From Antedon mediterranea (Eukaryota; Animalia; Echinodermata), in the NCBI RefSeq assembly GCF_964355755.1, contig NC_092670.1, forward strand, positions 7,120,201-7,184,200: 64,000 bases of DNA. The letters run 5' to 3'. A model generated the notes under the pieces. It did no database searches. It was not told the DNA's origin and saw nothing but the letters and a program-made list of their open reading frames with translations. A program made the translations under genes and the position numbers. This document shows positions 13,741-39,214 of the stretch, in pieces; the stretch's first letter is position 1, and each line of letters opens with the position of its first letter.

Positions 13741-13833
13741 GTAGGTACAATCATACAGCATGACATTTTAAACATTTCTTTAAAAATATATTTTATTTAA
13801 TAAAGTATCTATATATTAATGTTATTGTTTTAG

Positions 13834-14495: not shown

Positions 14496-16827
14496 GTATG
14501 TTTACATTTTTTATTCAAGTATTTTATGCAATTTCTCAACTTAGAATTAACTGTTGATATTGAACAAATATTGATATGTTTATTTTTAAATATAAATAGA
14601 AAATGTAGAATATTCTTGCTTTACTCGAAAAACTGATATCCATACAAATTGATATTTTACTGATTATGTGTTTTGTATTAAGGAAAGATGAGTTTCAAAA
14701 CTGTCTTCAAAACATTTTATGTAATAAGAAAGATTTTCATTTAAAATTTTTAACTTGTTTATATACTACTTTTGAAAATGGATTAAATAATTTGTTTGAA
14801 GAGAAAACACGATGGATAACCCCACCGTAGATCTGACCAGCTTTATGTTGACTAAGATTGAAGAACGTGCTTGTATTGACTGGAGGAGTGATCTTGCATT
14901 AAAATATTCTCTTTTAGACTATCAAATTATTAAAGAAACCCCCTGCCTAGCAGTGGTGGCGCCATGATCTTTCCGACGTGGGGGCTAAATTCCCCGACGG
15001 AGGGGCTATACGAGCGAAGCGAGCATCGCTAGGCTGGGGGCAGGGGCCGCCGAGGGCCCCCGATGGAGGTGGTCCAGGGGCGACGCCCCCGGAAGCAACG
15101 CGTTATAGCGTAATTTGAGGCCGTTTTAATCAGATTTAGGGTAGCCAACTTTTTCCATTTTGTATGGTATACAGATAAGATACTGTGCGACAAAAAACAT
15201 AGCACGAGATCCGATGCGATGACTGTGTAAATCCATCCTTTCAATTTTAAAAATGAAGTTCATGATGCCTATCATAGAAAATATACGCGAACATAAAACT
15301 TCCCACGGGCCAAGATGTATATATCGTTATATTCGCAGAGGCGTAGGCAGGTTGCTGTCTGGTGGGGTGCGAAAATTGTAAGTGCGCGAGACTAACACCC
15401 ATGGGCTGATCTGTAAGAACATTTTGACAAATAGAGCTGCTAGGTCTCCGGAAATTGCAATTATACATTGATATATGAAAAGAAATTACAAGTCTACCAG
15501 AGAACTAGCCCACCGAGGTTGAGATAGAGCTAAGAACATTTTAAACAAGTAGAGTTGTTAGGTCCCCGGAAATTGGATTATAGTATTTCGAAAAAAAAAG
15601 AAACAAAATATATACGTCTAGTCTCCAGGACCAGGTGGTTGAGCTGCTAAGAAAATTGTGAAAAACAGAACTGCCAGGTACCTGGAAATTGCACTTGAAA
15701 TTGCCCATATTGATAAATGAAACAAAATTTTAAGTCTACAGGACCAGCCCGCCATGGATGGTTGGGTGGAGCTAAGAACATTTTGAAAAATAGAGCTGCT
15801 AGGTCCCTGCAAAACATTGAAATATGAAACGAAATTATAGGTCTACAGGACCAGTCCACCATGGTTTTGGGTTGGAGCTAAGAACATTTTGAACTAGAAA
15901 GCCACTCCGAGAGTGCATACCTCCGCCTACTGTAAAATTCTCCTACATAAGATTTGTCCGGTAAAAAAAATATATGTATTTTTAGTCTTAATGCTGTTTG
16001 TGATTTAGGCTAATTTCATTACAAGCATGTGTATGCGAGTTTGGTGTAATGGTTATGTAACAAGCCTTTCAATTAACAATAGCTTCAGTTGACTAACAAT
16101 AGAACAGCAACGCGAAAATCAAACGAGTGAATTTGAAAAGAAATAGGTTTTTTTAAACTACTCGCATAAAAAAACGTGCACATTAAATCAAATTATGTTT
16201 TAAAATTACAAATCAAAACTTATAACTCTTGCCTCTTGTTCAAAAATGAAGTTTTTTGGACAAGTAGTTCTCGAGAAAATGCAATTTCAGTTTACTTGTT
16301 ACTTTAAGACTGCTCGCCGGCTTTTGAAAAATTCTGTCCTATTTTTTAACACTAGCAGGTCTGAAAAAGTATACTAAAAAGTGGTCCAGAATTGGGACTG
16401 TCGTCCCAAATGGTCCCAAAAGTTAATGGAATGGTCCTTGACCACATATCTATCTGTCTATTCATTTTGGTAAAGATCTTGTAAATACTTTCCTGCTAAC
16501 AAACAAACAAACAAACTAGCCTTCGCGCATAGCGCGATACTTGGCCCAATCAAAATTGGCCTAATGACCTTGACCCGATTTTTACCAAAAGTGTGTGTCT
16601 TGTGCTGTGTGATTTAGGCTAAATCCACTACAATCATGTGTATACGAGTTTGGTGTAAAGGTTATGTAACAAGCCTTTCAATTAACAATAGCTTCAGAGG
16701 ACTAACAAAATAAAACAGCAACGCGAAAAACACACGGGTGAATTTGAAAAGAAATAGGTTTTTAAACTATTCGCATCAAAAAACCTGTATATTAAATCTA
16801 ATTCAGTTTTAAAATTACAAATCACAA

Positions 16828-19707
16828 ACTAGAATTTAATTCGTCACTTTGACGAATTATAGGTGATCATTTTTATCATTTTAATAAAATTAACATTTTT
16901 TAAACATGCATGTACGTTAACATACGATCGTTAAAAGTTGATGTACGCCATCCTATGACATGATGCGTTATACACTTATAGTATTGAGTTCTACCTATTA
17001 TGTGTCATACAATATGTACAGTATATACTGTATATCTATATACAGTGTAGCATAGGTGAAATTACGGGACACATATCGTGTTCTAATTTTTTGGTATGAT
17101 GGAATTTTCAAAATAAACTCGAAGATGACAATTTCGAAAGATAATGAATTGAACAAATAAATATAAGGATTGGAAGAAAATTTTACACGTAGAAGCGCAA
17201 TGCGCGGTCTTTGAAATTTGTATAACTTTGACTAAAGAAATTTAAAAACTACTTTTTAACTTCAACTGGCCATATGATAACATCACAACATCCGATAGGC
17301 TTAATTTTAATATGAATTCATATCTACATTTCATCAGCTTTCATAATAAGTTATAATCTTTAAGGTCACCTTTAATTCTGAAGAGCTATAAGATATTCAA
17401 ATGTATGGTGTAGCTGAAATTACACGACCTAGGTTATTCAAGTTTTTACGCGTGATGACGTCATCAAAATAAAAATGTTGACAACTCATTAGAAGAATAA
17501 TTAAGCAAGCACCTACTAAAAGTTGTGCAAAAATCGGGCTCAAATAACGGAGATGCGCTCTATTGAATGTGATAACCCACACAAAAAGAAAAAAATTCCT
17601 AATTTTTAAATTCAAGTGGCCATTTGATGACGTCATACCATTTTGTACGTCTAATGTGTATATACATTTGTATCTACAACTTATTGGCTTCCATAATAAG
17701 TTAAAAAAATTTGGGGTCATCTACAATTCTGAAGAGTTATATTCATTTTAAAAAGTCCTTATTTTTTACCATTTTTAGCACTTTTGTACAATTAGTGTGA
17801 GCATTTTGTCATTTTTAACGTGCTCGTATAGCGTTATTTTAAGTCGGAATGGACTCAAAATTGGTGAATGTACTAAGGATTGTGAGTAGAATGTGATTTA
17901 TACATCAAATTTTATTTTTTACGCATTTTAAGAATCGTGCGCACAAAAACGCATTTTTGCGCAGTAATTTTTTGAAACGCGCAAATGGCCTAATTCATGC
18001 TCTAAATTGATCAAAACCTAATTTTGCGCGTTTTAAATTTTTAACGCGCGATTTCACGTGCATGACCTTGAAACGCGCAACTTTTTATTTTTTAATATTT
18101 TTACCCTTGACCTCAAGTTTACCTGTAGTGAATTTCATTAATATGTCATAATGAATTATGGAGATATGATTGATAATGTGATTTCACAAAATGGCGTATA
18201 AATGACGTCACGGATGAGTGATCACGCTGGAAAGCATAATATTAGGATTAAGTTATATTATTTGAAAGATATTCTGAAATTTTGGTAATCATTGACATTA
18301 AACTTTTTGAGATAATTGTTACACAAAATAGTGTACAGAAACAATAAAAAGAAAAAAAATAACTAGACATGAAACTCGTCACTTGAGGACAAGTTTGGTT
18401 ATCCGCCCGCAACAAAACGTATCTTGCGCATTCAAGTACTTTTCAGTTATGGCTTTTCCAAAAAGTAGCCTATTCGAAATTAAAACTGCCTTTTCAGTGT
18501 AACAACCAAATAAATCCTTTTATTAAATTGTTTTCCCGTGACGGGACTCGATCCCGGTACCTCTGATACCAAAGTCGGTGGCACTACACATCGAGCCATA
18601 TGAGCACCTGCTGAAGAAAATCCGACGAAAGTTTACTCGTTCATTCGGTATGTCGTGAACCACTCGATGCAAATAGATTATTACTTATCAAACTAAATCA
18701 TAGTTTTTACTATGAAGAAATCTTCACAAATTTTAAACAGTGACATATTATAAAAGTGCATACTTTTAAGTTTTATATATTAACATGTGAAGAAAAAAGA
18801 TAAACGTTATGTTTATTATTTTGCTATTTGAAAATATTTATGTTTGATTGATGATAAAAATTTCAAAATTTATATTTAATATGCAAATAATGTAGCCACC
18901 AAACACGTTTTAACATTCAACATTATAATAAATCAGACCTATGATTCATACACTGGAAGAAAATAAAATAAAAAATGGGGGTAACCTTGCATTCTGATGA
19001 ACTGTATCATTTTTAAAAGTATACATATTTTGCAACATTTTCAAATTTTTTTAACATTTTACGTGCGCAACCAGTCATGTTTAACGTGCTCGTAGAACGT
19101 CATTTCAAGTTGAATTGTGATTAAAATAACGTAAAATTGTTAACCGAAGATTGAAAAACACAACTCGTGCAAAAGAAATGCTCATACGTGTTCCCTGCGC
19201 CGTGCGCACGTAAAAATGTGCGCACCTGGTGGCAATTTTTCAAACCCTTAAAATGACCTGAATCGTGTTCTAATTTAATCAGAAATTGATTTGGAGCATT
19301 TTAAAATTTCAAAAGCCGTTTACGCGCGCACTTTCCAATGTTACAAATGTCGGTAGCGATAAAAAAGTTAGCAATTGATGTAAAGCAAACGTGGCTGGAA
19401 ATTACGTTAAAAAATAACTTAAGATTTTCAGAAATTCGCGCGTAACTTACGCTACGCGGATCTGACAGCGTCCAAAAGCTTCGCTGCACAACTTCAGTTA
19501 AATGTCGAAATGTTTACAAAGTTACAACATGTTATGTTAACACGTTGCAGAGAAAAGTTGAACACAAAAAGTGTTGGAAATATGGAAGAATAATAAAAAA
19601 AAGAAACACTACAATTCCAAGAGCTTATCCGCCTTGAGGCGGATAACCAATGATAAAGATTTCATACAATAACAATAGGTGATCATTTTATTCTAAATGA
19701 TCACCTA
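16828..19707 (-). mobile_element. HINE 'W' nested in Y1
   Basis: ACTAG, hairpin AATTCGTCACTTTGACGAATT, subTIR AGGTGATCATTT; far end hairpin AGGTGATCATTT..AAATGATCACCT; removal restores atcacaaattataac seen near 37546. Confidence 0.75.
18362..19650 (-). mobile_element. HINE 'V' nested in W
   Basis: ACTAG, imperfect hairpin, subTIR ggttatccgcc; far end hairpin TTATCCGCCTTGAGGCGGATAA. Confidence 0.7.
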
Positions 19708-20106
19708 ATTATAACTCTTGCCTCTTGTACAAAATGAAGTTTTTTGGACAAGTAGTTCCCGAGAAAATGCAATTTAAGTTTACTTGTTAATTTAAGACTG
19801 CTCACCGGCTTTTGATAATTCTGTCCTATCTTTTAACACTAGCAGGTCTGAAAATAATTTTTAAAAGTGGTCCAGAATTGGGACCGTGGTCCGGATTTTA
19901 ACCAAAATTGGGCAGTGTCGTCCTTGCACCAGGTGACATGTATGGTAGTAATTTGGAGTCATTCGAATCAAAATTGTGAGCGCTAGAGTGATGATAAACA
20001 AACAAACACACACACACACACATCCACAAACCGCACCAATCAACATACTTGGCCAATTTTAAATTTGGCCAAGTAACAAACACACAAACCAAACAGATCA
20101 AAAAAC

Positions 20107-21109
20107 TACGGTGGCCTATAAGTGTCACGGCAACTTTCTAAAAATATCACGGCAACTTTCAAAAAAAGCTACGGTAATTTGAAAAAAGCCACGGCAATTT
20201 GAAAAAAGCCACGGCAAATTAAAAATAAAACATCACGGCAAATTAAAAATAAAACATCGCGGCAATTTAACAAAAATACCACGGCAACTTAAAAATGAAA
20301 CACCACGGCCCGCACCACGGCAAATTAGTATTGAAACACCACGGCAAATTAGTAATGAAACATCACGGCAAATTACAGAATGCCACGGCGGAAGTGAGTT
20401 ACCACGGCGGAAGTGAAACCTTTGGAATCTTCGTTTTTTTCTGATGTAAGTAATTATTTGTGCATTGAAGTAAATATTATTATATTAATTTATTATATTT
20501 AACTGCAGCATTTTACGTGTTGATTGCACTAGGCCTAGCTATGCCTACTACTAGCCCTAGGCCTTAGGCCTACAGTAGTAGCTAGGTCTACTGTAAAAAC
20601 AACTTGTTATATAAAAAACAGATTACTGTAAATATATTAAAACATTGTAGAATGTTATAGGGCCTAGGCCTACCTTGTAATAAGGCCTATGGTCTAGCCC
20701 GGCCTAGAAAGTTTAAGAAAAGTGCAATAAACACGTAAACTGCTGCAGTTAAATAAATTAATATAATATTTACATCAATGCACAAATAATTACTTACCTC
20801 AGAAAAAATCGAAGATTCCAAAGGTTTCACTTCCGCCGTGGTAAATCACTTCCGCCGTGGCATTCTGTAAATTGCCGTGGTGTTTCACTATTAATTTGCC
20901 GTGGTGTTTCAATACTAATTTGCCTTGGTGTTTCATTTTTAAGTTGCCCTGGTATTTTTGTTAAATTGCCGCGATGTTTTATTTTTAATTTGCCGTGATG
21001 TTTTATTTTTAATTTGCCGTGGCTTTTTTCAAATTGCCGCCGTGGCTTTTTTTGAAAAAATTGCCGTGATATTTTTTGAAAGTTGCCGTGACACTTATAG
21101 GCCACCGTA
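20107..21109. mobile_element. IS3EU-like foldback MITE
   Basis: TACGGTGGCC..GGCCACCGTA termini, 6-bp TSD aaaaac, ~430-bp inverted arms made of CACGGCAA repeats. Confidence 0.75.
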
Positions 21110-23012
21110 AAAAACTTCTATATTAAATCTAATTCAGTTTTAAAATTACAAATCACACATTATAACACTTGCCTCTTGTACAAAAATGAAGTTTTTTGGA
21201 CAAGTAGTTCCCGAGAAAATGCAATTTAAGTTTACTTGTTAATTTACTAGATGGTACGCTCGCTTCGCTCGCGTACCATCTAGGTCGTGCCCATAGATGG
21301 TTCTCGAATACATAATAATTTCAGCGTTAAAAAATTGGCGATTTCAAATGCACGTACCGCAAGACAATAATACATGTCGTTTACAGGAACGAATAAATAG
21401 ACACTGTGATTTATGTACTGAACTAAAATTAGCACCCTGGGAATTACTTCCGAAAGAGAAACTTGTCACAAAATGAGACCAATATATTAAGTCAAATTTA
21501 AACAAACTTAATTTGTGTTTTGTATGCAACATTAGGGTTGAGGGATGGGAAAGAGGATGGGTGCAAAGAGGAACAATTTTTAAATATATTCTTTATCCAT
21601 GTAGTAACGAAATATTAATTGTTTTCATATAATATACCACTAAACACAGTAAAACATTGCGATGTAATACTTTGTTTAAACTATCACCGTCCTAGTCGAT
21701 TGAAATAGTATAGTACATGTAACGATACATCACTACGACGTGTATAATATGTTTATATAATGTAAAACAATTTGTGAAAACCACCCCTATTCGTGGCAAA
21801 CCATAAATTCGATTTAATCGTCAATAAATATTAAATCATCTAACTCAACTTAATTAGTAGGCCTAATGGTTTTCAATTGTTTCTTAGAGCCAATTCATAC
21901 TTAAGTTGGTTCCTAACCCTACCCACCAAAGTTGTTCTGCGTTTAGGGCATGTGATGCACAGTAGGCCTATCAGGCTCTATTATGGCTTTACAACGCTAC
22001 TCATGCGAGTGAGGGAAGGGTGATGATATGGGTGGTTTAACTGCAATAATAAAGATTTGTACATAATAAATATACGGCGACTGAAAACGCTAGCACCAGC
22101 TCATTATCCGTTTAAAAAAAATTATATCCAACCTCTGCAGCACAGATTGGAAAACAAATGGATCGAATTTCTGTTATGAGTATACAGTACTTTCCTTTAC
22201 GACGCCTGAGAGAATAGACACTTGTGGAACGACACAGAGATTGGAATGTTCCATTCATCGCAAATCAATACATTTGTATAAACGTATATTAAATTTATCA
22301 AAAAAGTATTTTTTTAAGAAAATCGGCCTGTCTTCAACATCATGATATTTTACTCGAGCTGTTCAACCGGTTTTCAGCTATTAAAAACAATTATCGTAGG
22401 AGGAGATAAGAAAATGCGAAGCCTCCTCGAATTTTTGTGGCGGGTATTTTTCAAGATTGACGTCCATTAGACAGTGTATACCACGATCGGAAAACACCCC
22501 TATTTGGGGCAAATCGTTGAACCTAAATTCGTTTTAATCGTCAATAACTAATTATCTAACTTAATTTAATTAGTAAACAGGGTTACATCAGGTGGTTAAA
22601 ATCAGTACCGAAAGTACGAACCAACTTTATATACCATCGAGTAAAAATTCTAAAAGTAAGGCGCGATTTACCGATTTTTGCCCTTACGTAAATTAATATA
22701 TAGAAGACTGCTCACCGGCTTTTGATAATTCTGTCCTATCTTTTAACACTAGCAGGTCTGAAAATAATTTTTAAAAGTGGTCCAGAATTAGGACCGTGGT
22801 CCCGATTTTAACCAAAATTGGGCAGTGTCGTCCTTGCACCAGGTGACATTGACATGTATGGTATTAATTTGGAGTCATTCGAATCAAAATTGTGAGCGCT
22901 AGAGTGATGACAAACAAACACACACACACACAAACACACACATCCACACACACACACACAAACAAACCGCACCAATCAACATACTTGGCCAATTTTAAAT
23001 TTGGCCAAGTAA
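21110..23012 (-). mobile_element. HINE 'Y2' (lacks its CTAG end; interrupted by a Helitron)
   Basis: Near-identical to Y1 over 19708-20076, with the same terminal hairpin at 22982-23011. Confidence 0.7.
21247..22704 (-). mobile_element. Non-autonomous Helitron (family X)
   Basis: CTAG hairpin at left, GA (TC on minus) at right; removal restores gttaatttaagactg as near 19786; no TSD. Confidence 0.85.
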
Positions 23013-23520
23013 CAAGCACCATACTATCGGTATTTTTTTAGATTAGTCAAAAGCATTTGACACCATAAATCATAACATTATTATTTCAGAGGCCTTCCAC
23101 TACTACTTTTAAAAGAATACTTATCATTTCGCTAACAATATACTTAATACACTCAACCAATTCTCAACTCTTGCATGTTACCTGTGGGGTCAAGGGTCAA
23201 TCATTGGCCCACTACTCTTTTTTTCTCTAAAGGCAATACCCATCATAAATAATTCATTTAAAACAAAATACAAACAAATACTTATTTCAAACTATTTAAA
23301 ACATTAGTACTTCACAATTGCCTTAAGACTGTTCTTTTCTTCCTTTTTTGTGCCCCTTTATTTAATTTCATTTGTCAATTTGATGAAAGAAAGAAGTAGT
23401 TTTTTTTTCTCTCACTTATTATAAATAACTAAATATATGTTTACTTACCTGGAGGACCAAACTTAAACTGTCACTGGATAATAACTTCTTTACTCTTTAA
23501 TTTTTTGTTATATTTTTCAG

Positions 23521-23859
23521 AATGCATAACAAATATATATCTTGAGGATGAGAATGTTTTATATTCATTTTCGTCTCCAAATTATCCGAATAATTACTAC
23601 AACAATTTAAATTGCGAATGGACAGTGTCCACCTCATCAGAGTTTGTCATTCTCCTTCAGTTCAAAGACTTTCAACTAGAGTATGGATGGGATTATCTGT
23701 ATGTTGGGTTTGAAGAAAATAGTTATGAGTATACTTTCACAGGTTCATCCACCATTCATTCTATAATTTCCGAAAACTCGACACTGTGGATACGTTTCTA
23801 CACGGACTCTAGTGTGACATATAGAGGATTCCATGCAACAGTAACAGCTTTAACAAATG
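23521..23859 (+). CDS. CUB domain exon 2
   Basis: FSSPNYPNNYYNNLNCEW..LEYGWDYLYV..FYTDSSVTYRGFHA; 339 nt, phase 1-1. Confidence 0.88.
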
Positions 23860-24200
23860 GTAATTGTGTGTGTCTTAACTTATGTTATCGCTTTTAAAAT
23901 GATCTTTATGTGGACCACAGACATGACATAAGCCTTCAACAACGTCCAAATAAAACCCAGTTATCATCCACAAAATAAATTACTCCCAATTACTTCCATT
24001 TAGCTTGGAATGCACTGTGATAATACTTATGTTCCATATTTTACATTATACCACAATTGTTCCACAAGGTAGGTTGTTGATTGTAAACACTATTGATGAC
24101 AGGTTAAATGCTGATTTCGAGCCTAGTGCGTCGAACACAAAATTGCGAACATTTGGATTTCTTAGATTTGCTTATAATCAAAATCTCATTTTGTCTTTAG

Positions 24201-24344
24201 CTATCGGTAATATAAAAACTGATTTCCAGACTGGTTTGAATAGTTGGACTCAAGAATTGGATGATAATTTTGATTGGACAAGGAGGTATGGCTCTACGCT
24301 ATCATTTAACACTGGACCGAGAAATGGTCATTCAGGATATGTAG
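24201..24344 (+). CDS. MAM domain exon a
   Basis: TDFQTGLNSWTQELDDNFDWTR..TGPRNGHS; 144 nt, phase 1-1. Confidence 0.8.
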
Positions 24345-24519
24345 GTACGTTATACGTATAAAATGTAGTTTAAAGTTTTTTACTAACTTTTATTCGTTAC
24401 TTTCATAGGCCTAGACAGTGTTACCTTCTTAATTAGTGTATATTTTTACTGCAAAATTTACCGATATATAAAGAATTACAATGTAAAATAATCACTTTTG
24501 TTTATTTCTACTTACACAG

Positions 24520-24849
24520 CTGATTATTATGTCTATATTGAAACATCACTAATCGGTTCTGGATTGACAGCTCGCATAAGAAGTCCATTGCTACCACAAA
24601 GTCAAAATATAACTTTATCATTTTACTATCATATGTACGGAGATACTATTGGAACACTCAATGTTTATAGAAAATCTAACGGGAATGATGAACTTTTATG
24701 GTCGAGATATGGTAACCAAGGAAATGTATGGCTTTATGGTGTAGTGCAATTATCGAATACTGGTTATGGCTATATCGTATTCGAAGGGATTTCGGGAAGT
24801 TCATTTACCGGTGACATTGCGATTGATGATATCTATATTAGTTATAATG
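24520..24849 (+). CDS. MAM domain exon b
   Basis: YVYIETS..ARIRSP..LSFYYHMYGDTIGTLNVY..GNQGNVW..GDIAIDDI; 330 nt. Confidence 0.9.
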
Positions 24850-25670: not shown

Positions 25671-25808
25671 GGCTGTGTGATTATGTATGCGATTTAACTG
25701 GATTGTGTGTAAATAGTAGTCGCATCTGTGATGGTATAAATGATTGTCAAAATGGAGACGACGAAAATAGATGCGGAGCAACGCCATTTCCTACATCCTA
25801 TCCAAACG
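25671..25808 (+). CDS. LDL-receptor class A exon 1
   Basis: LCDYVCDLTGLCVNSSRICDGINDCQNGDDENRC; 138 nt, phase 1-1. Confidence 0.85.
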
Positions 25809-26772: not shown

Positions 26773-29700
26773 AATGGATATGAAAGGGTTCCTAGCAATA
26801 TCATTTTATTGGCTCAACGTGTAGATCAATCAGTTTTAAGCTTGCCATAGTCATACTTAATGTTTTGGAGGACGACAACGCCCTCAAAACGCCCCTGAGA
26901 AACCTGTGAAAAACCTTTTGTGACGTCACTAAAAGTTATTTTTGTATTACAGAGATAGGAATTTAGCAGTAAATCATTGATTGATGCAAAAGCATGGTAG
27001 TAATTACTTATTGCTTTGATATTTTTATTCTTGGATAAGTATGTTAGCCTAATCGAATAAAATTAATTCATATTATCAACCAAGTTTTTTTTAAAACGGA
27101 TTTTCATTTCGTTTTTCAAGGCCATCTTTTACGAAATTCATAGCCAAATGCCTATCTTGCTGGGTACACGGAGTTATTTTGCGCATGCGTGAGAATCACA
27201 GAGTCGACCACCTTGGCCTCTCTCTCGACCCTCCGCCGAGCGATGTTTATTTCGCTATTTATAAATTATATTATACACGTATTATTGAAACATTCATTTT
27301 ATTATTATTTCGTTGTAATTAACTGAAATTGATGGAAATTCGTCCACATCGTCAGCTTGTTAACACGGGTGTTAACATCGTTTTGAAGAAACGGTTGGAC
27401 GAGTAAATGGTGTTTGACAATGCCATGGCCTGGAGCTAGCTAGGCCTAGGCCTAGGCCTTTTTAGTAGTGATGACTGCTGGATACGGTGTTTAGTCGCCC
27501 GGCCAGAGAGGTGAGCTGAGAGCGTATGCTCCTTGATGTATCGTTGAGGGTGTTAATGGTAGGCACAATTGTGTTACTGTATTATGTATATACACATTAT
27601 TTATAAGTACGTTTATTAATATTGTTGTGTGCTGTAGTGTCCTGACTAACGTATTATTAAAATATTTTTTTTTGTTATTACATGCCGCCCTACTAGCTAG
27701 TAGGCTAGGCAACACTGAATACTAAATATTATGATTCCTAATAAATAGAGTTGGATTTTCTCTAATGTAGTAATAAAGGTTATAACAGGCCAGGCCTAGT
27801 TAGGGTATTTCAGCTTGTATCATATACAGTACCATATACAGTACAGTATACAGTAAATAAACAATTCATTTGTATTTTTACCTACCTACAGGTCTATAAT
27901 TGGAGTGCAATTATGATAATTGATGGACGAGATAAGCAAATGTATTTATTGATTGGAATGGAAGCGCAAATGTTAGAGTAAAATTATAATATTAAGGTAA
28001 CAGATACTGAGCATTGCTATTTTAAACTGTTGATCAAACCTACATAATACATTATACTAAAATTATTATTTTGTTTTGAGGGCAGATAAACATGTGCTTA
28101 TTCATTTTCCTTTTTTCAGGTGAATAGAAAGATACCCAGAGTACTTTATAATAGATGCTACTTGGATCATGCTTGCACGATACATTTATGCAGTATACTA
28201 AGACACCAAGTATAGAATGAGCGCAGACAATTAAAATTACAGAACTAAATATTTATGAAGAATAGTAAAATATGCATAATAGAATTCTTTAGACGCGAGT
28301 GCTAGGGTTACAGTCATACTGTAACTATGGTAATGTACTACCAGACAGTACACTAGTAGCAGTGCATCATATAGTGTTTGTTTTTAACCATCTAAATGGG
28401 TCTGGGTGTGAGTGAGTGGCCGAGCGGTTAAGACAGTGGAACCGTAATCACGTAGCCATAACATCGGCAGGGGTTCGAGGCTCACTCACTCCGTGGTTCT
28501 GGTGGTAGAACGAGTCTTCTCGGATAAGGACTATAAACCGTAGGTCCAGTGTACACAACTTGCTCGTGTGCACTTTAAAGAACCTAGTACATCTTTCGAG
28601 ATGAGTAGGGGGTTACCCCGGTGTATTAGTACATCACAGCCACTGATCACCAACTGGGCCCTCTGGGAGATCAGTCTTTGACTGAAGAGGTCACCCAGTA
28701 TAAAGATAAAACAAACAAAAAACAAATAAAAACAAATACTGTATAAACAAATAAACCACTACTGTACTTCTTTTTTTATTTATTTAGCCAAATACTATGT
28801 ACAATGGACATTTATGAAAGAATCCATCTCTTGAATATGATGGAGCTGGCTGGTGGTGTTGATAGAATTAAAATGTATCACTCAGGTCTCAAAAGTAATT
28901 TATGTCCTGTTTGAAAAATCCTGCTTGTTCCAAACTCATTATGATACATTTGTTCAATAAAATTCATTCAACACACTATTTCTGCCATATAATTTGATGT
29001 TTACAATTTTATTACTAGTACTATTACAGTTCTTCAAAGCCATCTCATGTACTGTTGATTCCATAAATCTGCAAAGATAAGACCAATAAATGGATGGAAA
29101 TGTACTATTATTTTTATTCAATCCTACCTCTAGGCCCTATAGTATTATATTTTATGACTTGGTAACAAACAGAAAGAGGTTATTATTTAATTACACTACA
29201 GTTACTAACTACACTATAATAATCCTCTCGGCCTCACCTCCTCTGCTCTACTTTAATTATTAGTATTATCATATTACTATATTAGTCAATAACAAAAGTC
29301 AGAGCCAAAAACAAGTTCAACACAAGCTTACCTTTTTTATTTACGTCGCCTTTTACATACGTCTACGCCCGCGCCTTGTCCACTTCCTGGAGGTTCGTCG
29401 GTGGACCGGCGACTGCTACTCTCTTGTACTGTAGTAGGCCATGGAGTAACTCCATGTGTAGGCCTAGCCTACTACTAGCGAATTTAGAAGAAACTATAGT
29501 CTACTAGACCTAGCCTAATTTGTAGTCTGCGTGAGTGGTTTAGTGTGAGAAGTACAAATACACACTTTCTTCTTTTCACGTACAATCTTTGCAGACATAA
29601 CTTTTTATTGATTTGTGAAATATCGATATTTTCTACGACTGCAGCAACAGGGAGCTTGCAACACGCGAGTCTCGTGTAGCATGGGTTTGTTTATTTTGTT

Positions 29701-30037
29701 TACACCACACACAGTCCGCGAACGAGACAAGGCGGTGATTGGACTGTATTAAAATTCATTAACCATTCACAAAACGACTGCTGCCGTGGCTACAACCCCG
29801 GGTGTTTCAAACTCTAAATTTGACAATCTCGTACGTGCGTATAGAACGTTCATAAAAATTAAGATGGCGTGCCAGTTGGTCGGCCATTTTGCGGACGTTT
29901 TATACAAAAATTTAATTTGTTTATTTCTCAATTTCTACTAGGTATTTGAATCTAATTTTTTGTGTGCTGTTTATTAACATTAAAAGGATTCATACAAAGT
30001 CCTTTTTGTGAAATTTTAAAATCCTTTCATATCCATT
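26773..30037. mobile_element. Kolobok-like TIR element
   Basis: 15-bp TIR AATGGATATGAAAGG flanked by TTAA on both sides. Confidence 0.65.
28409..28735 (+). mobile_element. tRNA-derived DeuSINE, full length
   Basis: A box TGGCCGAGCGG, B box GGTTCGAG, Deu-like core (ctcggataaggactataaaccg..taaagaacc..agtagggggttaccccggtg), A-rich tail. Confidence 0.8.
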
Positions 30038-30735
30038 TTAAAATGTTTTGAAAAGTATTGTTATTTAAAAAAAATTACTTAGTAAGTGGTCGAATCGTAT
30101 AAACATGTTACATAATATTATGTTGCGAGTGTAAAAAACGAAAGTTTAGGTAAGAAATCGAAGATATAACGGTGTGGTGCGAAACTGCAGTAGCGCCGAA
30201 ATTTGTAGCATAATCTATAGCAGGCCTAGCCTAGGCCAGCTCTTTGTTAATGTTGGTGCCTAACTAGCCTGACCCTTCGTCGCCTTGTAAATTGTACAGC
30301 CTTCTAAGGTGTTTTACAGATTGCCGATTGACGGCTAATTAATTGCTGTACCTGTATAATATATGCACAATATACTGTACATAGCATGTATTGCATAAAT
30401 ATGCTATAAAGGAAGATAATAATCTGTAACCTAACATTCGCCGCCATATATCCCTAGACAAAAATAATAACAATAAAGGACGCCCTCAATAATTATTTTG
30501 TCAGAGACTTTTTATTGGCCGAATATGTCCGACTCCTTTCTCACAGAAAGCCGGTATATACCGGTTATATTTCCGGCACGATAGTCCGATGAGAATGGGT
30601 ATATGCCGGTAACGATACCGGCACGACGCCAGCACTGTACCGGTATATTGCAGACACATCTGTGAGAAAGGGGCTATGGAGATAAATATAGGAGATACAA
30701 ATTTTAAAAAAAATAAAATAAAAAATAAAATGCCA

Positions 30736-33700
30736 TAGTCCATGGGCTGGAGGGGGTTACCGTGCACCCCCCCCCCCCCACAGTTAAACTTCTTTGGTAT
30801 CATTTTCTTCTCACGGACATATAGAGTGAAAAAATCGATGTTAACAAGAAAAATATAGGGATGCATTGTATGTACTTGCGTCATTTGTAATGATCATCAG
30901 TGTTTTATCTTCAAATATTTGTTGGGGTAGGGGGTAACATTTATCCTAATAACCCAAGAATCCAACATCTAATTAGTATTATCTTAGTAACATTGTGTAG
31001 CATACATCTTTTAAAATCTTTTAAATTTAAATAAAATTAATCGGAAGATTATTAAGGTCAGTAGAGGTCAAAAGGTTATTGACCTTTTGCAAAATGCAAA
31101 TTTTTCCCAAAATATAGATAAATTTCAATATCGTATCTACAATTTTCAATATTTTTTATCTTAATTGGGTTTTACTTGTGCTTACTGACATATTGAATAA
31201 GAAAATATATGTTAACAAGATAAAAATTGCAGTTCATTATATACAAATTGTTATTTTTTATTGTTAAAAATTGCAATAAAAATACATTTTTTGGGGTAGG
31301 AGGTAACAATAATAGAAATAACCCAAGAATCAAATATCTAATTAGTATGATCTTGGTGTCGTTGTGTAGCATTTATGTTTTTTAATCACATAAAATTTAA
31401 ATAAAATTAATCGAACCATTTTTAAGGTCAGTAGAGGTCAAAAGGTCACTGACCTTTTTTCAAAATTGCAAATATTTGCCATAATGATATACATTTCAAA
31501 TCTCTAATTTTCAATATTTTTTATTTTAATTGTGTTTTACTTGTGTTTACTGACATATTGAATAACAAAATATGTGTTAACATGAAAAAAATTGCACTGC
31601 ATTAATACCAATTGTCATGTAATTTTGTTATTCTTCAAAATTACAATAAAAAGACATTTTTGGGGTAGGGGGTAACAATTATCCCAATAACCCAAGAATC
31701 CAACACCTAATTAGTATTATCTTGGTACCATTGTGTAGCATACATCTTTTAAAATCTTATAAATTTTAAATAAAATTAATCGGACTATTAGTAGGGTCAG
31801 TAGAGGTCAAAATGTCATTGATCTTTTACAAAAATGCACATTTTTGCCAAAATATAGATAAATTTCAAAATAGTATCTATAATTTTCAATATGTTTTATC
31901 TTAATTGTGTTTTACTTGTGCTTACTGACATATTGAATAAGAAAATATATGTTAACAAGATTAACATTGCAGTTCATTATACACAAGTTATCATTTTTTA
32001 TTCTTAAAAATTGTAATAAAAATACATTTTTTGGGTAGGGCGTAACATTAATAGCAATAACCCAAGAATCAAACATCTAATTAGTATGATCTTGGTGTCG
32101 TTGTGTAGAATTCGTTTTTTTTTAACCATATAGAATTTTAATAAAATTGATTGAACCATGTTTAAGGTCAGTAGAGGTCAAAAAGGTTACTGACCTTTTG
32201 CAAAATTGCAAATATTTGCCATTATGAGATACATTTCAATATCAAATCTCCAATTTGTTCAATACTTTTCATTTTAATTGTGTTTTACTTGTGTTTACTG
32301 ACATTGAATAACAAAATGTGTGTTAACATGAAAAAATTGCAGTGCATTAATACCATTGTCATGTAATTTTATTATTCTTCAAAATTGAAATAAAAAGACA
32401 TTTTTGGGGTAGGGGGTAGCATTAATACCAATAACCCAAGAATAAAACATCTAATTAGTACGATCTTGGTATCGATGTATAGCATATATGTTTTTGTAAT
32501 CATGTAGAATTTAAATGAAATTAATCGAACGATTATTAAGGTCAATGGAGGTAAAAATATAAATATTTCAATATCAGATCTCCAATTTTCGATATGTTTT
32601 TATTTGAATTGTCTTTTACTTGTGCTTACTAACATATTGAATAAGAAAACGTGTGTTAAGATAAAAAATGTCAGTACATTGTAATTTTGTAATTGTTAAA
32701 AATTGCAATAAAAAGACATTTTTGGGGTAGCGTAGTAACATTTATAAGAATAACCCAAGTATCAAACATCTAATTTGTATGTTCTTGGTATCGTTGTGTA
32801 GAAAAAATAAAAATTATGCAGAATTTAAATAAAATTAAACAAAATGCTACACAACGATACCAAGATCATACAAATTAGATGTTTGATTCTTGGGTTATTC
32901 TTCTTCTTATAAATGTTACCTGCTACCCCAAAAATGTCTTTTTATTGCAATTAAAAATTGACAATTTCTATACAATGTACTGCAATTTTTTATCTTAACA
33001 CAAATTTTCTATATTCAATATGTTAGTAAGCACAAGTAAAAGACAATTCAAATAAAAAAATATCGCGAATTGGAGATCTGATTTTGAAATATATCTCATT
33101 TTGCCAAAAAATTACATTTTTGCAAAAGGTCAGTGACCTTTTGACCTCTACTGACCTTAGTATCGTTCGATTAATTTCATTTAAATTCTACATGATTACA
33201 AAAATATATGCTACACATCGATACCAAGATCATACTAATTAGATGTTTGATCCTTGGGTTATTGGTATTAATGCTACCCCCTACCTCCAAAAATGTCTTT
33301 TTATTGCAATTTTGAAGAATAATAAAATTACATGACAATGGTATTATTGTACTGCAATTTTTTTCATGTTAACACACATTTTGTTATTCAATGTCAGTAA
33401 ACACAAGTCAAACACAATTAAAATAAAAGTATTGAAAAAATTGGAGATTTGATATTGAAATATATCTCATTATAGCAAATATTTGCAATTTTGCAAAAGG
33501 TCAGTGACCTTTTTGACCTCTACTGACCTTAAACATGGTTCAATTAATTTTATTAAAATTTTATATGATTAAAAAACACAAATGCTACACAACGACACCA
33601 AGATCATACTAATTAGATGTTTGATTCTTGGGTTATTGCTATTAATGGTACACCCTACCCCAAAAAATTTATTTTTATTGCAATTTTTAAGAATAAAAAA

Positions 33701-35715
33701 TGATAATTTGTGTATAATGAACTGCAATTTTAATCTTATTAACATATATTTTATTATTTAATTTGTCAGTAAGCACAAGTAAAACACAATTAAGATAAAA
33801 CATATTGAAAATTGTAGATACTATGTTAAAATTTATCTATATTTTGACAAAAATGTGCATTTTTGTAAAAGGTCAATGACCTTTTGACCTCTACTGACCC
33901 TACTAATAGTCCGAATAATTTTATTTAAATTTTATAAGATTTTAAAAGATGTATGCTACACAATGGTACCAAGATAATACTAATTAGGTGTTGGATTCTT
34001 GGGTTATTGGGATAATTGTTACCCCCTACCCCAAAAATGTCTTTTTATTGTAATTTTGAAGAATAACAAAATTACATGACAATTGGTATTAATGCAGTGC
34101 AATTGTTTTCATGTTAACACATATTTTGTTATTCAATATGTCAGTAAACACAAGTAAAACACAATTAAAATAAAAAATATTGAAAATTGGAGATTTGATA
34201 TTGAAATGTATCTCATTATGGCAAATATTTGCAATTTTGCAAAAGGTCAGTGACCTTTTGACCTCTACTGACCTTAAAAATGGTTCGATTAATTTAATTC
34301 AAACTTTATATGATTAAAAAACATGAATGCTACACAACGACACCAAGATAATACTAATTAGATGTTTTATTCTTGGGTTATTGCTATTATTGTTAACCCC
34401 TACCCCAAAAAATGTATTTTTATTGCAATTTTTAACAATAAAAAATAAGAATTTGTATATAATGAACTGCAATTTTTATCTTGTTAACATATATTTTCTT
34501 ATTCAATATGTCAGTAAGCACAAGTTAAACACAATTAAGATAAAAAATATTGAAAATTGTACATACGATATTGAAATTTATCTATATTATGGGAAAAGTT
34601 TGCATTTTGCAAAAGGTCAATGACCTTTTGACCTCTACTGACCTTAATAATCTTCCGATTAATTTTATTTAAATTTTAAAAGATTTTAAAAGATGTATGC
34701 TACACAATGTTACTAAGATAATACTAATTAGATGTTGGATTCTTGGGTTATTGGGATAATTGTTACCCCCTACCCCAAAAATGTCTTTTTATTGTAATTT
34801 TGAAGAATAACAAAATTACATGACAATTGGTATTAATGCAGTGCAATTGTTTTCATGTTAACACATATTTTGTTATTCAATATGTCAGTAAACACAAGTA
34901 AAACACAATTAAAATAAAAAATATTGAAAATTGGAGATTTGATATTGAAATGTATCTCATTATGGCAAATATTTGCAATTTTGCAAAAGATCAGTGACCT
35001 TTTGACCTCTACTGACCTTAAAAATGGTTCGATTAATTTTATTCAAATTTTATATGATTAAAAAACATGAATGCTACACAACGACACCAAGATCATACTA
35101 ATTAGATGTTTTATTCTTGGGTTATTGCTATTATTGTTAACCCCTACCCCAAAAAATGTATTTTTATTGCAATTTTTAACAATAAAAAATAACAATTTGT
35201 ATATAATGAACTGCAATTTTTATCTTGTTAACATATATTTTCTTATTCAATATGTCAGTAAGCACAAGTAAAACACAATTAAGATAAAAAATATTGAAAA
35301 TTGTACATACGATATTGAAATTTATCTATATTTTGGGAAAAATTTGCATTTTGCAAAAGGTCAATGACCTTTTGACCTCTACTGACCTTAATAATCTTCC
35401 GATTAATTTTATTTAAATTTTAAAAGATTTTAAAAGATGTATGCTACACAATGTTACTAAGATAATACTAATTAGATGTTGGATTCTTGGGTTATTAGGA
35501 TAAATGTTACCCCCTACCCCCAAAAAATATTTGAAGATAAAACACTGATGATCCTTACAAATGCCGCAAGTACATACAATGCATCCCTATATTTTTCTTG
35601 TTAACATCGATTTTTTCACTCTATATGTCCATGGGAAGAAAATCATACCAAAGAAGTTTAACTGTGGGGGGGGGGGGTGCACGGTAAACCCCTCCAGCCT
35701 CCAGCCCATGGACTA
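30736..35715. mobile_element. Academ-like 5-kb foldback element with arms made of ~370-bp tandem repeats
   Basis: TAGTCCATGGGCTGG..CCAGCCCATGGACTA termini; 3-bp TSD cca; whole element is an inverted repeat centred near 32825. Confidence 0.8.
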
Positions 35716-35829
35716 CCACTATTTAATTTGATTATTCCCATGAGCAACGAAGTTGTATTTATCAATAGTTTGTTTAAACATTAAATTAAACATATATAAT
35801 TGAATAAATAAATATTTACATTTAATTAG

Positions 35830-35970
35830 GCACGTGTGATTATGTTTGCATTTACACTGGAATGTGTATAAGCAGTAATCGTATCTGCGATGGTATAAGT
35901 GACTGCCTATATGGCGACGATGAATATGGATGTGGAGCAACACCATATCCTACATCTTATCCATCAAACG
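35830..35970 (+). CDS. LDL-receptor class A exon 2
   Basis: TCDYVCIYTGMCISSNRICDGISDCLYGDDEYGC; 141 nt; paralog of 25671. Confidence 0.85.
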
Positions 35971-36306
35971 GTTTGTTTTTCGCTTAGTGAACAATTTACT
36001 TATTGTATAATACAATACTATTAATTGTAAATGAACAAAGTCAAATAAGTACGCAAGTGCAACTGAAGATAGTGGCCTTCTTTTACAAAGTTACATCCAC
36101 AAAATGAATGAAAAACCATGTGAAAAAAAATACAGTATTAAAATAAAAAGGACGTCGTAGTAATATACAATACACATCTTCATTGACCACGACAGTGACA
36201 CAAAGTAATTATTAGGCTGTATAATGAATCTGTTTCATTGATAAAATGTGTACGTTTAAATGTATTTAAAGAAATATTTTTATTTATATCTAATTTTTTT
36301 TTTCAG

Positions 36307-36645
36307 AATGTAACATAACTGCAATTTATCTTCAGGATGCGAATGTTTCATATTCATTTACATCTCCAAATTATCCAAATAATTACCAGAACTATTTAAA
36401 TTGCGAATGGACAGTGTCCACCTCTTCAGAGTTTGTTATTCTTCTTCAGTTCAACGACTTTCAACTAGAGTATGGATATGATTATCTGTATGTTGGGTTT
36501 GAAGAAAATAGTTATGAGTATACTTTCACAGGTTCATCCATTCATTCTATAATTTCCGAAAACTCGACACTGTGGATCCGTTTCTACACGGACTACAGTG
36601 TGACATATAGAGGATTCAATGCAACAGTAACGGCTTTAACAAATG
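36307..36645 (+). CDS. CUB domain exon 3
   Basis: Close paralog of 23521-23859; open, 339 nt, phase 1-1. Confidence 0.88.
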
Positions 36646-37231
36646 GTAATTTGTGTATTTTTTTACTGGTTTTATTGTTTTTTTGAAATTCCTATGTATG
36701 TTGACCACAAGCAAGACAATACGTATGTAAAAAGCGTCCACATTAATTCACACTACTACATTATCAACAATATTCCACATTACATTAACAAGATATTTTC
36801 ATATTTTTAGCTTTGAAATGCACTCGTTATCGTTACATGGCATACCACTTGTAAACATTAAACAAATCACCGAATTTCACAGCAATACAATATAATTACT
36901 TTGTGTACGTGTACGTGTACATGATTGATTTTTATGAATGGAATAAAAACAAAACGCATTTGTTGTTTACCACAAACGGTACAGTACAATAATAAAAAAA
37001 AAAATAATAATAATTAAATCTTAGCGGACATTTAAATACAAAGAGCATCTTTTCTATTTTTGGAAATAATGTAAGAATTCAATTTTAAATTATAAATTGA
37101 GAAAAGCAATTACATTTTTTCACCATGTTCTCGTCTCCACTAATAATATCTGCATCTAGATAATATCACAGTTTCACAGATAATCGTAATAAAAATCTCG
37201 TTGAATTGGTTTATTTTGGTCTTAATATTAG

Positions 37232-37336
37232 ATTGTGACTTTTTTTGCCATGATGGTTTGTGCTTAGATGAGTCTCTCGTCTGTAACGGTAACAGCGAAT
37301 GTACAAATGGGGAAGACGAATTAAACTGTGTCAACG
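37232..37336 (+). CDS. LDL-receptor class A exon 3
   Basis: DCDFFCHDGLCLDESLVCNGNSECTNGEDELNC; 105 nt, phase 1-1. Confidence 0.82.
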
Positions 37337-37423
37337 GTATGCTTTATTTTTAACCTTTCCGGTTTTATCAGAAATTGTATTTGATATAGTTTTCAGTTGT
37401 TATTTATGTTGTCCACATACAAA

Positions 37424-37903
37424 TTGACTAACAATAGAACAGCAACGCGAAAAACACACGGGTGAATTTGAAAAGAAATAGGTTTTTTAAACTATTCGCA
37501 TAAAAAAACCTGTATATTGAATCAACTTTTGTTTTAAAATTACAAATCACAAATTATAACCCTTACCTCTTGTCCAAAAATGAGGTTTTTTGGACAAGTA
37601 GTTCTCGAGAAAATGTAATTTCAGTTTACTTGTTACTTTAAAACTGCTCACCGGCTTTTGAAAATTGTCTCCTATCTTTTAACACTAGCCGGTCTGAAAA
37701 TAATATCATTTTTGTTATTTGTGAAGTTATTAATAAACCAATTTTGTTGATTTTCAATAGGCGTGGTCTGAATGTATATACCTATCTACACCCAAAAATT
37801 CAGAATGATAACTTGAAAACTGTAGGCTCTATCGTGCTAACAAACAAACAAACACACAAACAAAGTGAATACTATACTTGGCAAAATTCTTTTTGCCAAG
37901 TAA
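37424..37903 (-). mobile_element. HINE 'Y3' (Y-related, lacks its CTAG end)
   Basis: Core shared with 16089-16380 and 16700-16827; terminal hairpin TACTTGGCAAAA..TTTTGCCAAGTA beside (aaac)n. Confidence 0.65.
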
Positions 37904-39214
37904 CAAACATACGCTACCGATTACATATACCTCCTTGGCGGAGGTAAAAAATAGAGTTGATAGGTCCCGGAAATTTAACGTATTATACTTCGAAGCATAA
38001 AAAAAAATATATACCGGTACGTCTCCAGAACCAACCCTACCATGGATATGGAAAAAAAATGAAAAAAAGAGAGCTCTATGTTCCCAGATAATGCACTAAC
38101 TGTATATTGTACATCGAAATATGAAACGAAATGTATAAGTATCCATGACCAGCTCTATAATTGGGGACGATTGAGCTAAGACAATTTTGAAAACTAGAGC
38201 TGCAGGTCTTCAAAAAGTACACTTATAACTTTAAAAAATTCAGGCCTAAAGGCCTAAAAACGTGACCCTTTTTACCTTTTATTTGTAGGGGAATGCATCC
38301 GCAAGCGTAGACCATTTTCCTTCGGGGAAAATCAGTTCATTTCCCAGATGTGAATCTGGAATTTCGATGTATGATGAGCAGTTCATGATAATATACAGGA
38401 CATTGGAAATGTAATAACTTAGCTATAATAAGATGTTGGAAAAATGTTTGTTTAGTGATGTAGGCGAGCCTACAGTGAAACGTCTATTTTAGGTACCCCA
38501 CGGTACAGGGTTAATCGTAAATAAAAAAAAAACAATAGATCGCGAACATAATTCGTACCCTTTTGCTGTAGAGCGTACGTCGATACACAGTACACACGTA
38601 ACGCTTCGGTAAAGTTCGCCTGGAAACTAACAGTACACATTCTGGTCCCTGGATGGAACATGATATCACGCGTAAACCGCAATGGTCCGGGCCCAATGTT
38701 AAACGTACAAATGGACACCGCCAGACAAGTGCGTACCTATTGTTTATTGGATCGCCGGCAATAATGCAGGCAAAAAAAGTGTAATAGCTCTCCGTCCGAC
38801 GTACTAAAAAATGGAACGTCGCGGTTTTCTAGGCGCTGAAGATACGAAGTGAACGCGAATGATTTTTACTGTATATTATATTCCCCGACGGGGGGGGGGC
38901 TAGGCTCCCCGACGAGGGGGCTAAATCCCCCGTAGCCCCCCCCCCCCGCTGGCGCCACCACTGCTGCCTAGAAACATATTTACTTGAGCCATTAGACTTC
39001 GAAAGCGCAACCATAAAATTTAAATTGTGACCTAATACGTTACCATTAAAGAGACGTACCTCAAGCTGGTCAGATAAAAGCAAAAATGACGGTCTATATA
39101 CCCTACGTAACTCTAAATCCACCAAAGATCTTAGGAATCATGTCCTGCGCTCCAGAATATTAGACTGAGTAATTGGCAATACTCGAGCAAAAGCTATCGA
39201 ATGCAATTGACGTT

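Follow-up and report, generated by a model that had tools for sequence, protein, structure and literature searches.

Seven cargo exons within nested hAT-type and HINE elements in a likely adhesion receptor gene of Antedon mediterranea

The window analyzed here, a 64,000-nucleotide stretch of the Antedon mediterranea genome, is the locus of RefSeq model XP_071942998.1 (P0113; 100% match). The last host exon before a nest of transposable elements (TEs) encodes a CUB domain (CUB0, 14163..14495, + strand; 94.5-95.5% identical to P0094, P0095, P0096 and P0102), and the first host exon after the nest encodes a HYR domain (HYR2, 43271..43525, + strand). Host-type proteins whose CUB matches CUB0 at 94% identity or more number four (P0094, P0095, P0096 and P0102, predicted proteins of paralogs). 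In all four, CUB was followed directly by HYR, with neither MAM nor LDLa between them. Since the window is the locus of P0113 itself, P0094-P0096 are paralogs of the same species, and the possibility that they are orthologs from another species was ruled out on the same ground. P0096 matches the host HYR-EGF-Ig-SEA region at 80-100%; GAIN/GPS and 7TM domains would fall beyond the window. In addition, the related protein P0099 carries PF00002 (7tm_2) and PF01825, which we take to be GPS. Judged from these domain matches, the host gene is likely an adhesion receptor.

The nest is bounded by a hAT-type element. Its terminal inverted repeats (TIRs), at 14951 and 38963, match at 14/14 positions, and directly outside them lie two copies of CTGCCTAG (14943..14950 and 38964..38971, + strand), identical at 8/8 positions. 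These counts bear out the hAT-type TIRs and shared 8-bp target-site duplication (TSD) reported in a first-pass annotation of this DNA. Insertions of hAT elements produce 8-bp TSDs. The 8-mer occurs four times on the + strand of the window, and its probability at a fixed place, calculated from base composition, is 4.5e-6. The left arm (14951..15892) contains the 14-bp TIR and internal repeat units of ~115 bp, and the right arm spans 37947..38963. Once inserts are subtracted, the element is 1959 bp long and non-autonomous: no transposase was seen in it, and two ORFs in the right arm had no Pfam match. One could suppose that the nest was loaded elsewhere and that the whole 24 kb was then moved by hAT. 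The perfect TIRs and TSD agree with such a move, and multicopy Pack-TIRs are on record, although they make up just 4 of the 281 unique Pack-TIRs counted in the survey (PMC8277862). With no second loaded copy known and an element of 1959 bp in which no transposase was seen, we regard this scenario as quite improbable.

Within the hAT element lies HINE Z, on the - strand. Its 3′ part (15893..16514) comprises a CTAG end, a subTIR, the core and the start of an AAAC microsatellite, and its 5′ end (37903..37946) comprises the remainder of the microsatellite and a subTIR with an inverted repeat. The ends of Z are 15893 and 37946; the previously assigned right end, 37947, falls within the ambiguity of an A-run. 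When Z was removed, the rebuilt hAT stretch was 85.6% identical to neighboring hAT units over 202 columns, with the alignment crossing the join. The earlier view that Z splits one hAT internal repeat unit, which its removal restores, therefore holds with this refined right end. From the outside inward, the nest consists of the hAT, HINE Z and a 21.4-kb unit that has HINE termini of Y type and occupies a T|T site. The hAT and Z levels were as described before, but one level had been missed, namely a third element type that lies inside the microsatellite of Z and bounds the cargo. It is likely that HINE Z resided in the hAT of this same intron before the cargo came, and the hAT is probably a witness rather than a carrier.

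The 21.4-kb unit (16515-37902) contains three Y-type HINEs, all on the - strand. Y1 (16515..20075; 681 bp net) is complete, with CTAG, a stem-loop and a subTIR at its 3′ end, and this 3′ terminator forms the left boundary of the unit. Y2 (21110..23011) is 97.8% identical to Y1 and has its 5′ end at a T|T site, and Y3 (37424..37902) contributes its 5′ terminus (subTIR and inverted repeat) as the right boundary. Both Y2 and Y3 lack a 3′ end. Across 16400-38000, a pattern search located a single 3′ terminator of Y type, at 16515. The outer cargo boundaries inside Z are thus HINE termini in one orientation that share an 8-bp subTIR core. The missing terminators of Y2 and Y3 provide the condition that read-through requires. 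Y1 is complete by itself and Y3 diverges from Y1/Y2 (90-93% identity), two features that count against read-through.

Further elements are nested in the unit: element W in Y1 (16828-19707) and element V in Y2 (about 21246-22706), and a palindromic MITE with a 6-bp TSD at the start of Y2 (20107..21109). The ends of W and V are CTAG hairpins that share the orientation of the unit. These ends belong to other families, and no terminator of the Y family was found between the start and end of the composite. The position of W and V inside the unit is a further point against read-through, which requires these elements to be younger than the unit or to have been ignored by the enzyme. Four nested insertions account for about 10.3 kb of the 21.4-kb unit and may be younger than it. 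Abrupt junctions occur at about 20097 and 37425.

Individually, Z, Y1, Y2 and Y3 have the subTIRs, hairpins and T|T target without TSD of HINEs, or non-autonomous HLE2 elements, whose structure, T-rich target and absence of TSD are defined in PMC4067079 and PMC11417382. The insertion sites of Z, Y and W are A|A on the + strand, i.e., a T|T target, with no TSD. Terminal hairpins folded better than shuffled sequences at four of five ends (Y1 3′, Y1 5′, Y3 5′ and Z 5′; z -3.3 to -7.8), and folding of the Z 3′ stem-loop was not above shuffles (z -0.26). The composite has a TT target on the strand of the element, and its removal leaves a 5-unit AAAC run. Removal of Y1 alone likewise leaves a TT target and a 5-unit run, so the phase of the microsatellite, with five AAAC units under each arrangement, was rejected as a means of distinguishing them. 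The subTIR pair formed by Y3 and Y1 includes 8 perfect bp and matches at 10/13 positions overall, and the pair of Y1 itself matches at 12/13 (mite HINE pairs span 12-15 bp). Given this pair, the TT target and the 5-unit run, Y1 could have inserted independently.

The cargo consists of seven exons on the + strand, with the Pfam order CUB, MAM (two exons), LDLa, LDLa, CUB and LDLa: CUB1 (23521-23859; 96.4% identical to the CUB of repeat 1 of the candidate donor P0002, described below), the N-terminal (24201-24344; 95.7% to P0002) and C-terminal (24520-24849; 94.5%) parts of MAM, LDL1 (25671-25808; 97.8%), LDL2 (35830-35970; 87.0%), CUB2 (36307-36645; 86.5% to the colinear donor repeat and 92.9% to repeat 3) and LDL3 (37232-37336; 93.9%). 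All seven have AG..GT flanks, a length divisible by 3 and phase 1-1, and together they amount to 1536 nt; the splice donors of LDL1 and LDL2 are weak (GTTTGT). Recomputation therefore returned the open exons, canonical splice sites, phases, total length and domain order of the first-pass annotation, with the MAM N-terminal exon and LDL2 scoring below the curated Pfam cut-off when taken alone. The seven exons had also been called intact, which their reading frames are. The copy as a whole is internally deleted: the donor LDLa and CUB exons are missing at 24054, leaving a 15-bp stump of the CUB exon (24054..24068, + strand) that reads IVPQ followed by a GT donor. Among the pieces listed, contigs from runs X5 and X6 cease to fit at 24054.

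The closest relative of the cassette is XP_071953545.1 (P0002), a CUB/MAM/LDLa protein with three similar repeats, at about 87-98% identity by exon. Its gene lies on a contig of 31,698,884 bp, and P0113 lies on a different contig of 41,379,608 bp. P0002 was the sole match above 70% identity among 93 in the search with the MAM exon and, the model of the locus itself aside, the sole match above 50% among 12 in the search with CUB1. The order of the cassette follows that of P0002 residues 306-965, with a gap at about 418-568. Given that LDL2 and CUB2 are just ~87% identical to the colinear repeat, P0002 may be a relative or an allele of the donor. In a CUB tree of 23 rows, the cassette CUBs fell in a starred 7-row clade whose other members were exclusively CUBs of P0002, and CUB0 of the host fell in a separate starred clade. 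An assembly misjoin at HINE repeats could in principle have brought donor-chromosome sequence into the nest, and no contig among those listed crosses 10500-27000. However, two misjoins that preserved three nesting levels would be needed, the shared repeats are shorter than 500 bp and 90-98% alike, the window contains no Ns, and the copy departs from annotated P0002 at every exon as well as in the two-exon deletion. A misjoin is accordingly a slim prospect.

That the cassette is foreign to the host gene, as had been proposed, is supported by these sequence comparisons: its nearest relative is on another contig, its CUBs are separated from CUB0 in the tree, and 4/4 host-type proteins lack these domains. 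Self-BLAST found no copies of cassette exons or exon flanks in the DNA around the hAT, and matches between inside and outside were repeats only, in line with the previous statement that the cassette is not a copy of hAT-flanking DNA. Native exons would call for tandem duplication of an intact nest followed by deletions that left half-nests on either side. The host locus does often duplicate and delete (10643-14471 and 43100-44506 are found again, 92-99% identical, at 50961-55584), yet at least three events would be required, the cassette CUBs are of another lineage, and MAM and LDLa are absent between CUB and HYR in all four close host-type proteins, leaving this the least probable of the origins considered.

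The proposal of TE-mediated arrival is partly supported: the anatomy fits involvement of TEs, but what bounds the cargo most closely is a pair of HINE termini of Y type, which belong to neither Z nor the hAT. We consider it about an even chance that the 21.4-kb composite moved into HINE Z in one rolling-circle read-through event. A terminator-less HINE (Y3) would have occupied the donor intron that follows LDL3. A Helentron transposase supplied in trans would have begun at the 5′ end of Y3, run through the exons and through Y2, which has no terminator, and halted at the hairpin and CTAG of Y1, and the product would have entered a T|T site in the microsatellite of Z without a TSD. Bypass of the Helitron 3′ end with transduction has been demonstrated experimentally (PMC4778049); the element in that assay was HLE1 and the cassette scored was 1.6 kb. 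Gene capture by HINEs is described as infrequent (PMC4067079).

A possible but rather unlikely alternative is that Y1 and Y3 inserted separately in the microsatellite of Z and that a subsequent break in the nest was mended with about 17 kb of donor-gene sequence, copied in during gap filling, by a template switch or through ectopic recombination between HINE cores. The nest offers four HINE cores that are 90-98% alike, 16700-16834 and 37426-37559 overlap at 91%, Y1 is self-complete, and the junctions at about 20097 and 37425 and the deletion at 24054 resemble template jumps. Moreover, gap filling is given as the source of most single-copy animal Pack-TIRs (PMC8277862), and DNAREP1 is found at breakpoints of young Drosophila duplicates, for which NAHR was favored (PMC2211543). 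Against such repair, Y elements would have had to insert twice, independently and within about 20 bp of each other, and Y3 would have had to lose its 3′ end, neither junction has a clean homologous crossover, and the gap-filled cargo of the Pack-TIR survey has a median of 224 bp and is mostly from the same chromosome (PMC8277862).

Because the cargo exons share the strand of the host gene and each is phase 1-1, in-frame splicing is possible, and a predicted 18-exon chain contains no stops. The predicted model P0113 includes the 37336>43271 join (LDL3 to HYR2); it begins inside LDL2, and the upstream exons are absent from it. Four of nine read runs, including X5 (presumed RNA), were compared with 10500-27000; the listings, dominated by TE-derived noise, covered 15 of the 610 joints, 24 of the 4119 loose ends and 32 of the 31695 pieces. 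No host-cassette joint, including 14495>23521, and no 23859>24201 joint was present among the 15 of 610 joints, a fraction small enough to make their absence uninformative. Over 505 residues, the cassette carries 11 or more private changes. Under neutrality, the probability that neither a stop nor a hit on a splice dinucleotide would have arisen is 0.31 at 1% divergence and 0.09 at 2%, with indels left out of the calculation. Intact frames were rejected as proof of selection, being compatible with neutrality. The exons are quite probably a young passenger rather than a spliced part of the receptor. It is unlikely that both parts apply, i.e., that read-through of a composite (Helentron-type) HINE carried a 21-kb stretch including the seven phase 1-1 exons from one chromosome to another, into an intron of an adhesion GPCR gene, and that the exons are spliced in frame. 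If both were true, this would be a new chimeric receptor observed at its origin, whose donor, vehicle and landing site can still be read from the sequence; if transcripts contain the exons, the receptor has a new architecture of recent origin with six added domains.

How symmetric phase 1-1 domain exons move between unrelated animal genes has mostly been deduced from ancient products or statistical patterns. At this locus, the nesting pinpoints one insertion point, a candidate donor lies on another contig of the same species, and predicted proteins of paralogs show the unloaded state. None of the titles listed in literature searches concerned this locus; supplementary data, such as the tables of the Pack-TIR survey, could hold larger or exon-rich cases. 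Animal Pack-TIRs (Tan et al. 2021, PMC8277862) resemble it in that host-gene sequence is enclosed by the TIRs of a single hAT-type element flanked by a TSD, seemingly in single copy, within a gene and on its strand. They differ in size: their median is 224 bp, the search for them was capped at 5,000 bp, and the largest one reported in human measures 3,585 bp, compared with about 21 kb and seven coding exons here; in addition, the present cargo is directly bounded by HINE termini instead of hAT, and the donor-like gene is on another contig. Non-TE sequence does lie between the ends of one TIR element, but the survey's ranges of 100-5,000 bp internal sequence and 80-120% of parental length are exceeded or broken by about 22 kb between the hAT arms and the internal deletion. 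The survey also asks for a unique parental copy at 90% DNA identity or more and free of flanking TEs; the candidate parent here is identified at the protein level. We therefore do not count the locus as a Pack-TIR despite the similar outer anatomy. Since its size and HINE-type boundaries fall outside the filters of that survey, such events may be undercounted.

Helitron read-through (Grabundzija et al. 2016, PMC4778049) offers a parallel in that a lost terminator leads to use of a downstream one, with natural examples of borrowed 3′ ends. That system involves HLE1 with TC...CTAG ends and an A|T target, whereas this locus has HINE/HLE2-type subTIRs, a T|T target, a far longer span and a mobilization that is inferred. 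In Drosophila, HINE-type elements (DINE-1/DNAREP1/HINE) likewise occur at breakpoints of dispersed duplicates, where the choice between transposition and recombination is also unsettled; among the chimeras described in the parts of these reports considered here, none fused two genic sequences (PMC4067079, PMC2211543). In contrast, the exons of one gene lie here in phase in the intron of another, and the nest fixes a single insertion point. Fish texim genes in Helitrons (PMC4021074) are also animal host genes captured and moved by a rolling-circle element, but they are whole, multicopy and old, and insertion into the reading frame of another gene is not described in the portion of that report considered. 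Finally, shuffling of phase 1-1 domain exons in lancelets (PMC4284660) shares with this locus translocated symmetric exons with TE fragments enriched nearby, and was seen also between haplotypes. The lancelet evidence is statistical, whereas the crinoid locus presents a single event with base-level boundaries and a candidate donor.

The gene crossing the window is the locus of RefSeq model P0113 (XP_071942998.1, Antedon mediterranea, 41,379,608-bp contig), since ten exons, LDL2 (from residue 11), CUB2, LDL3, HYR2, HYR3, SMB2, HYR2b, HYR4, HYR7 and HYR9, are 100% identical to this protein. Its host exons encode HYR, somatomedin B, CUB, many HYR, EGF, Ig and SEA domains. Matches to the database protein P0096 and, more distantly, to P0099 and P0103, both continuing into a 7TM region, suggest that the host gene is likely an adhesion GPCR, whose GAIN and 7TM regions would lie beyond the window. 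At 632-1246 lies the tail of a preceding 7tm_2 receptor gene, about 62% identical to P0099/P0103, so that these receptors form a tandem cluster here. Host introns also harbor two broken LINE-like elements with endonuclease and RT fragments (7639-9246 and 44713-49819, minus strand) and, at 42079-43133 (minus strand), a presumably Penelope-like piece that gives a weak GIY-YIG match.

Seven cassette exons (CUB1, MAMa, MAMb, LDL1, LDL2, CUB2 and LDL3; 23521-37336, plus strand) lie between host exons CUB0 (14163-14495) and HYR2 (43271-43525). As described in the first-pass annotation, all are open, with AG..GT sites and phase 1-1, and encode CUB-MAM-LDLa-LDLa-CUB-LDLa in 1536 nt; self-comparison of the window likewise did not find them to be copies of the flanks of the surrounding hAT-type element. 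The proposal that the cassette is foreign to this position was supported by protein searches. The CUB0 search yielded eight proteins, and P0102 was added from a cluster look-up; 4/4 proteins at least 94% identical to CUB0 (P0094, P0095, P0096 and P0102, all on the same contig, P0095 and P0102 being one cluster) have HYR2 right after it. MAM and CUB1 searches both led to P0002 (XP_071953545.1, partial), encoded on another contig (31,698,884 bp), which has a signal-peptide-like N-terminus followed by repeats of CUB-LDLa-CUB-MAM-LDLa-LDLa. At the protein level, with donor and unloaded paralogs represented by predicted proteins, the cassette exons were, in order, 96.4, 95.7, 94.5, 97.8, 87.0, 86.5 (92.9 to repeat 3) and 93.9% identical to P0002. 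In a 23-row CUB tree, cassette CUBs grouped with P0002 CUBs (95/91) and CUB0 with host paralogs (99/95); long branches meet near the root, leaving both clades unaffected. P0002 could itself be an allele, or a sister, of the gene that actually served as donor. The cassette is very probably a real foreign insertion, and native exons combined with duplication and deletion are an extremely improbable alternative.

The host block (SMB, CUB, HYR2) recurs once at 50961-55584 with 92-99% identity. There the CUB is truncated on either side, and the sequence passes directly from the counterpart of 14471 to that of 42882, so neither nest nor cassette is there now, which is compatible with past presence or absence. 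In addition, P0107 (2578 aa), encoded on the 31.7-Mb contig that also carries the donor-like gene and sharing a cluster with serine protease P0097, has five CUB modules, each 64% identical to CUB0; an LDLa match precedes four of them. The resemblance hints at earlier module traffic between donor-like and host loci.

Self-comparison revealed inverted repeats that match 14/14 at 14951 and 38963, with an identical 8-mer directly outside each (chance of the flanking 8-mer at a fixed place, 4.5e-6), confirming the annotated hAT anatomy. The claim that a single repeat unit inside this element is interrupted by HINE Z, here placed at 15893 to 37946, was borne out: after Z removal, the rejoined unit aligned to neighbouring units at 85.6%, across the join. 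Z's AAAC microsatellite is in turn interrupted at a T|T site, with no duplication, by an insert whose left edge (16515) is the 3' terminus of one Y-type HINE and whose right edge (37902) is the 5' terminus of a second, similarly oriented one. The nesting order is hAT (1959 bp) > Z (666 bp) > a unit of 21,388 bp; the annotated outer levels stand, and the innermost cargo bounds are Y-type termini, one level deeper than had been placed. From established TE behaviour, the TSD, split repeat unit and split microsatellite each indicate two halves that were formerly adjacent, in support of the suggested adjacency of the TSD copies. Misassembly at these junctions is very improbable, and a hAT that moved already loaded with its cargo is only slightly less so.

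The inner unit contains a complete Y1 with W nested inside, a MITE, Y2 (3' end absent, 97.8% to Y1, V nested inside), the cassette exons, and Y3 (3' end absent). W, MITE, V and a satellite foldback total 10,297 bp. Z, Y1, Y2, Y3, W and V (15893-37946) all share one orientation. As Z's microsatellite received Y, Y1 received W and Y2 received V, it appears that HINE-like elements target their own kind. The MITE (20107-21109) is palindromic, bears subterminal tandem repeats of 20-24 bp and has a 6-bp TSD; the 5-kb foldback in the LDL1-LDL2 intron (30745-35699) is built from a ~370-bp satellite unit, arrayed in 4.4 copies in one arm and, inverted, in 7.2 copies in the other. A ~297-bp element, which by eye seems tRNA-derived, occurs inside the cargo (28412-28708) and, inverted with 98% identity, outside it (53882-54177).

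The boundaries, donor-like gene and unloaded paralogs (predicted proteins) are observed features, from which we infer the route of movement. A single HINE read-through event would account both for cargo limits that coincide precisely with HINE termini and for the missing terminators of Y2 and Y3; we give this route an even chance. Read-through has been demonstrated experimentally in HLE1 Helitrons (PMC4778049). However, Y1 is self-complete, pairing 12/13 with its own 5' end versus 10/13 for the composite, and removing Y1 alone restores Z as well as composite removal does; both observations count against read-through. Repair or recombination among HINE cores, which are 90-98% alike in the nest, is a possible but less probable source of the cassette; it is the explanation taken by default for Pack-TIRs present in single copy (PMC8277862) and was favoured for DNAREP1-flanked duplicates (PMC2211543). 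A loaded hAT, misassembly and native exons are less likely than either read-through or repair.

Two donor exons are absent between CUB1 and MAM; of the lost CUB exon, 24054-24068 retains the final residues (IVPQ) and the GT donor. Contigs from two sequencing runs diverge at 24054: one from X5 matches 23830-24054, followed by 110 unlike letters, and in one from X6 the match begins at 24054, preceded by 28 unlike letters. The cassette is therefore a deleted copy of a longer gene. All cysteines are retained, and at least 11/505 residues depart from a state common to every donor repeat compared, one of them by a Pro to Leu replacement in MAM. Under neutrality, intact frames have a probability of 0.31 to 0.09 at 1-2% divergence.

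Translation of the window gave an 18-exon chain, from signal peptide through cassette to HYR2b, of 1101 codons with 0 stops; thus, in-frame inclusion is possible. P0113, a predicted model with a Met start inside LDL2 and intron-derived residues at its end, contains the LDL3>HYR2 join. A word-limited protein search (about 190-2000 aa) found no protein identical to the CUB0, CUB1 or MAM exon. Contigs of X5, by our guess RNA, show splicing between cassette-type exons: 3 join MAMa>MAMb and one reads LDL1>LDL2>CUB2. In the latter, the LDL1 part has 0 differences in 137 letters, the LDL2 part shares window LDL2's 25 differences from LDL1, and the CUB part departs from CUB1 by 17 differences, the window's CUB2 by 15; by sequence, it could be the window copy or a donor allele alike. 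Recruitment of the cassette into the receptor is doubtful, and it is unlikely that both read-through and in-frame splicing are true.

Among the matches listed, there was no literature on this locus. This is a real multi-exon capture between unlinked loci, unusually legible, and a novel form of gene-fragment movement associated with TEs. In lancelets, phase 1-1 shuffling near TEs has statistical evidence (PMC4284660), and gene capture by HINE elements is described as infrequent (PMC4067079). The structural features tested from the HINE definition (PMC4067079, PMC11417382) are present in Z and the Y copies. The nest shares its outer anatomy with Pack-TIRs, but it falls outside the size criteria of the Pack-TIR survey (median 224 bp, cap 5,000 bp; PMC8277862), and for this reason we do not class it as a Pack-TIR.
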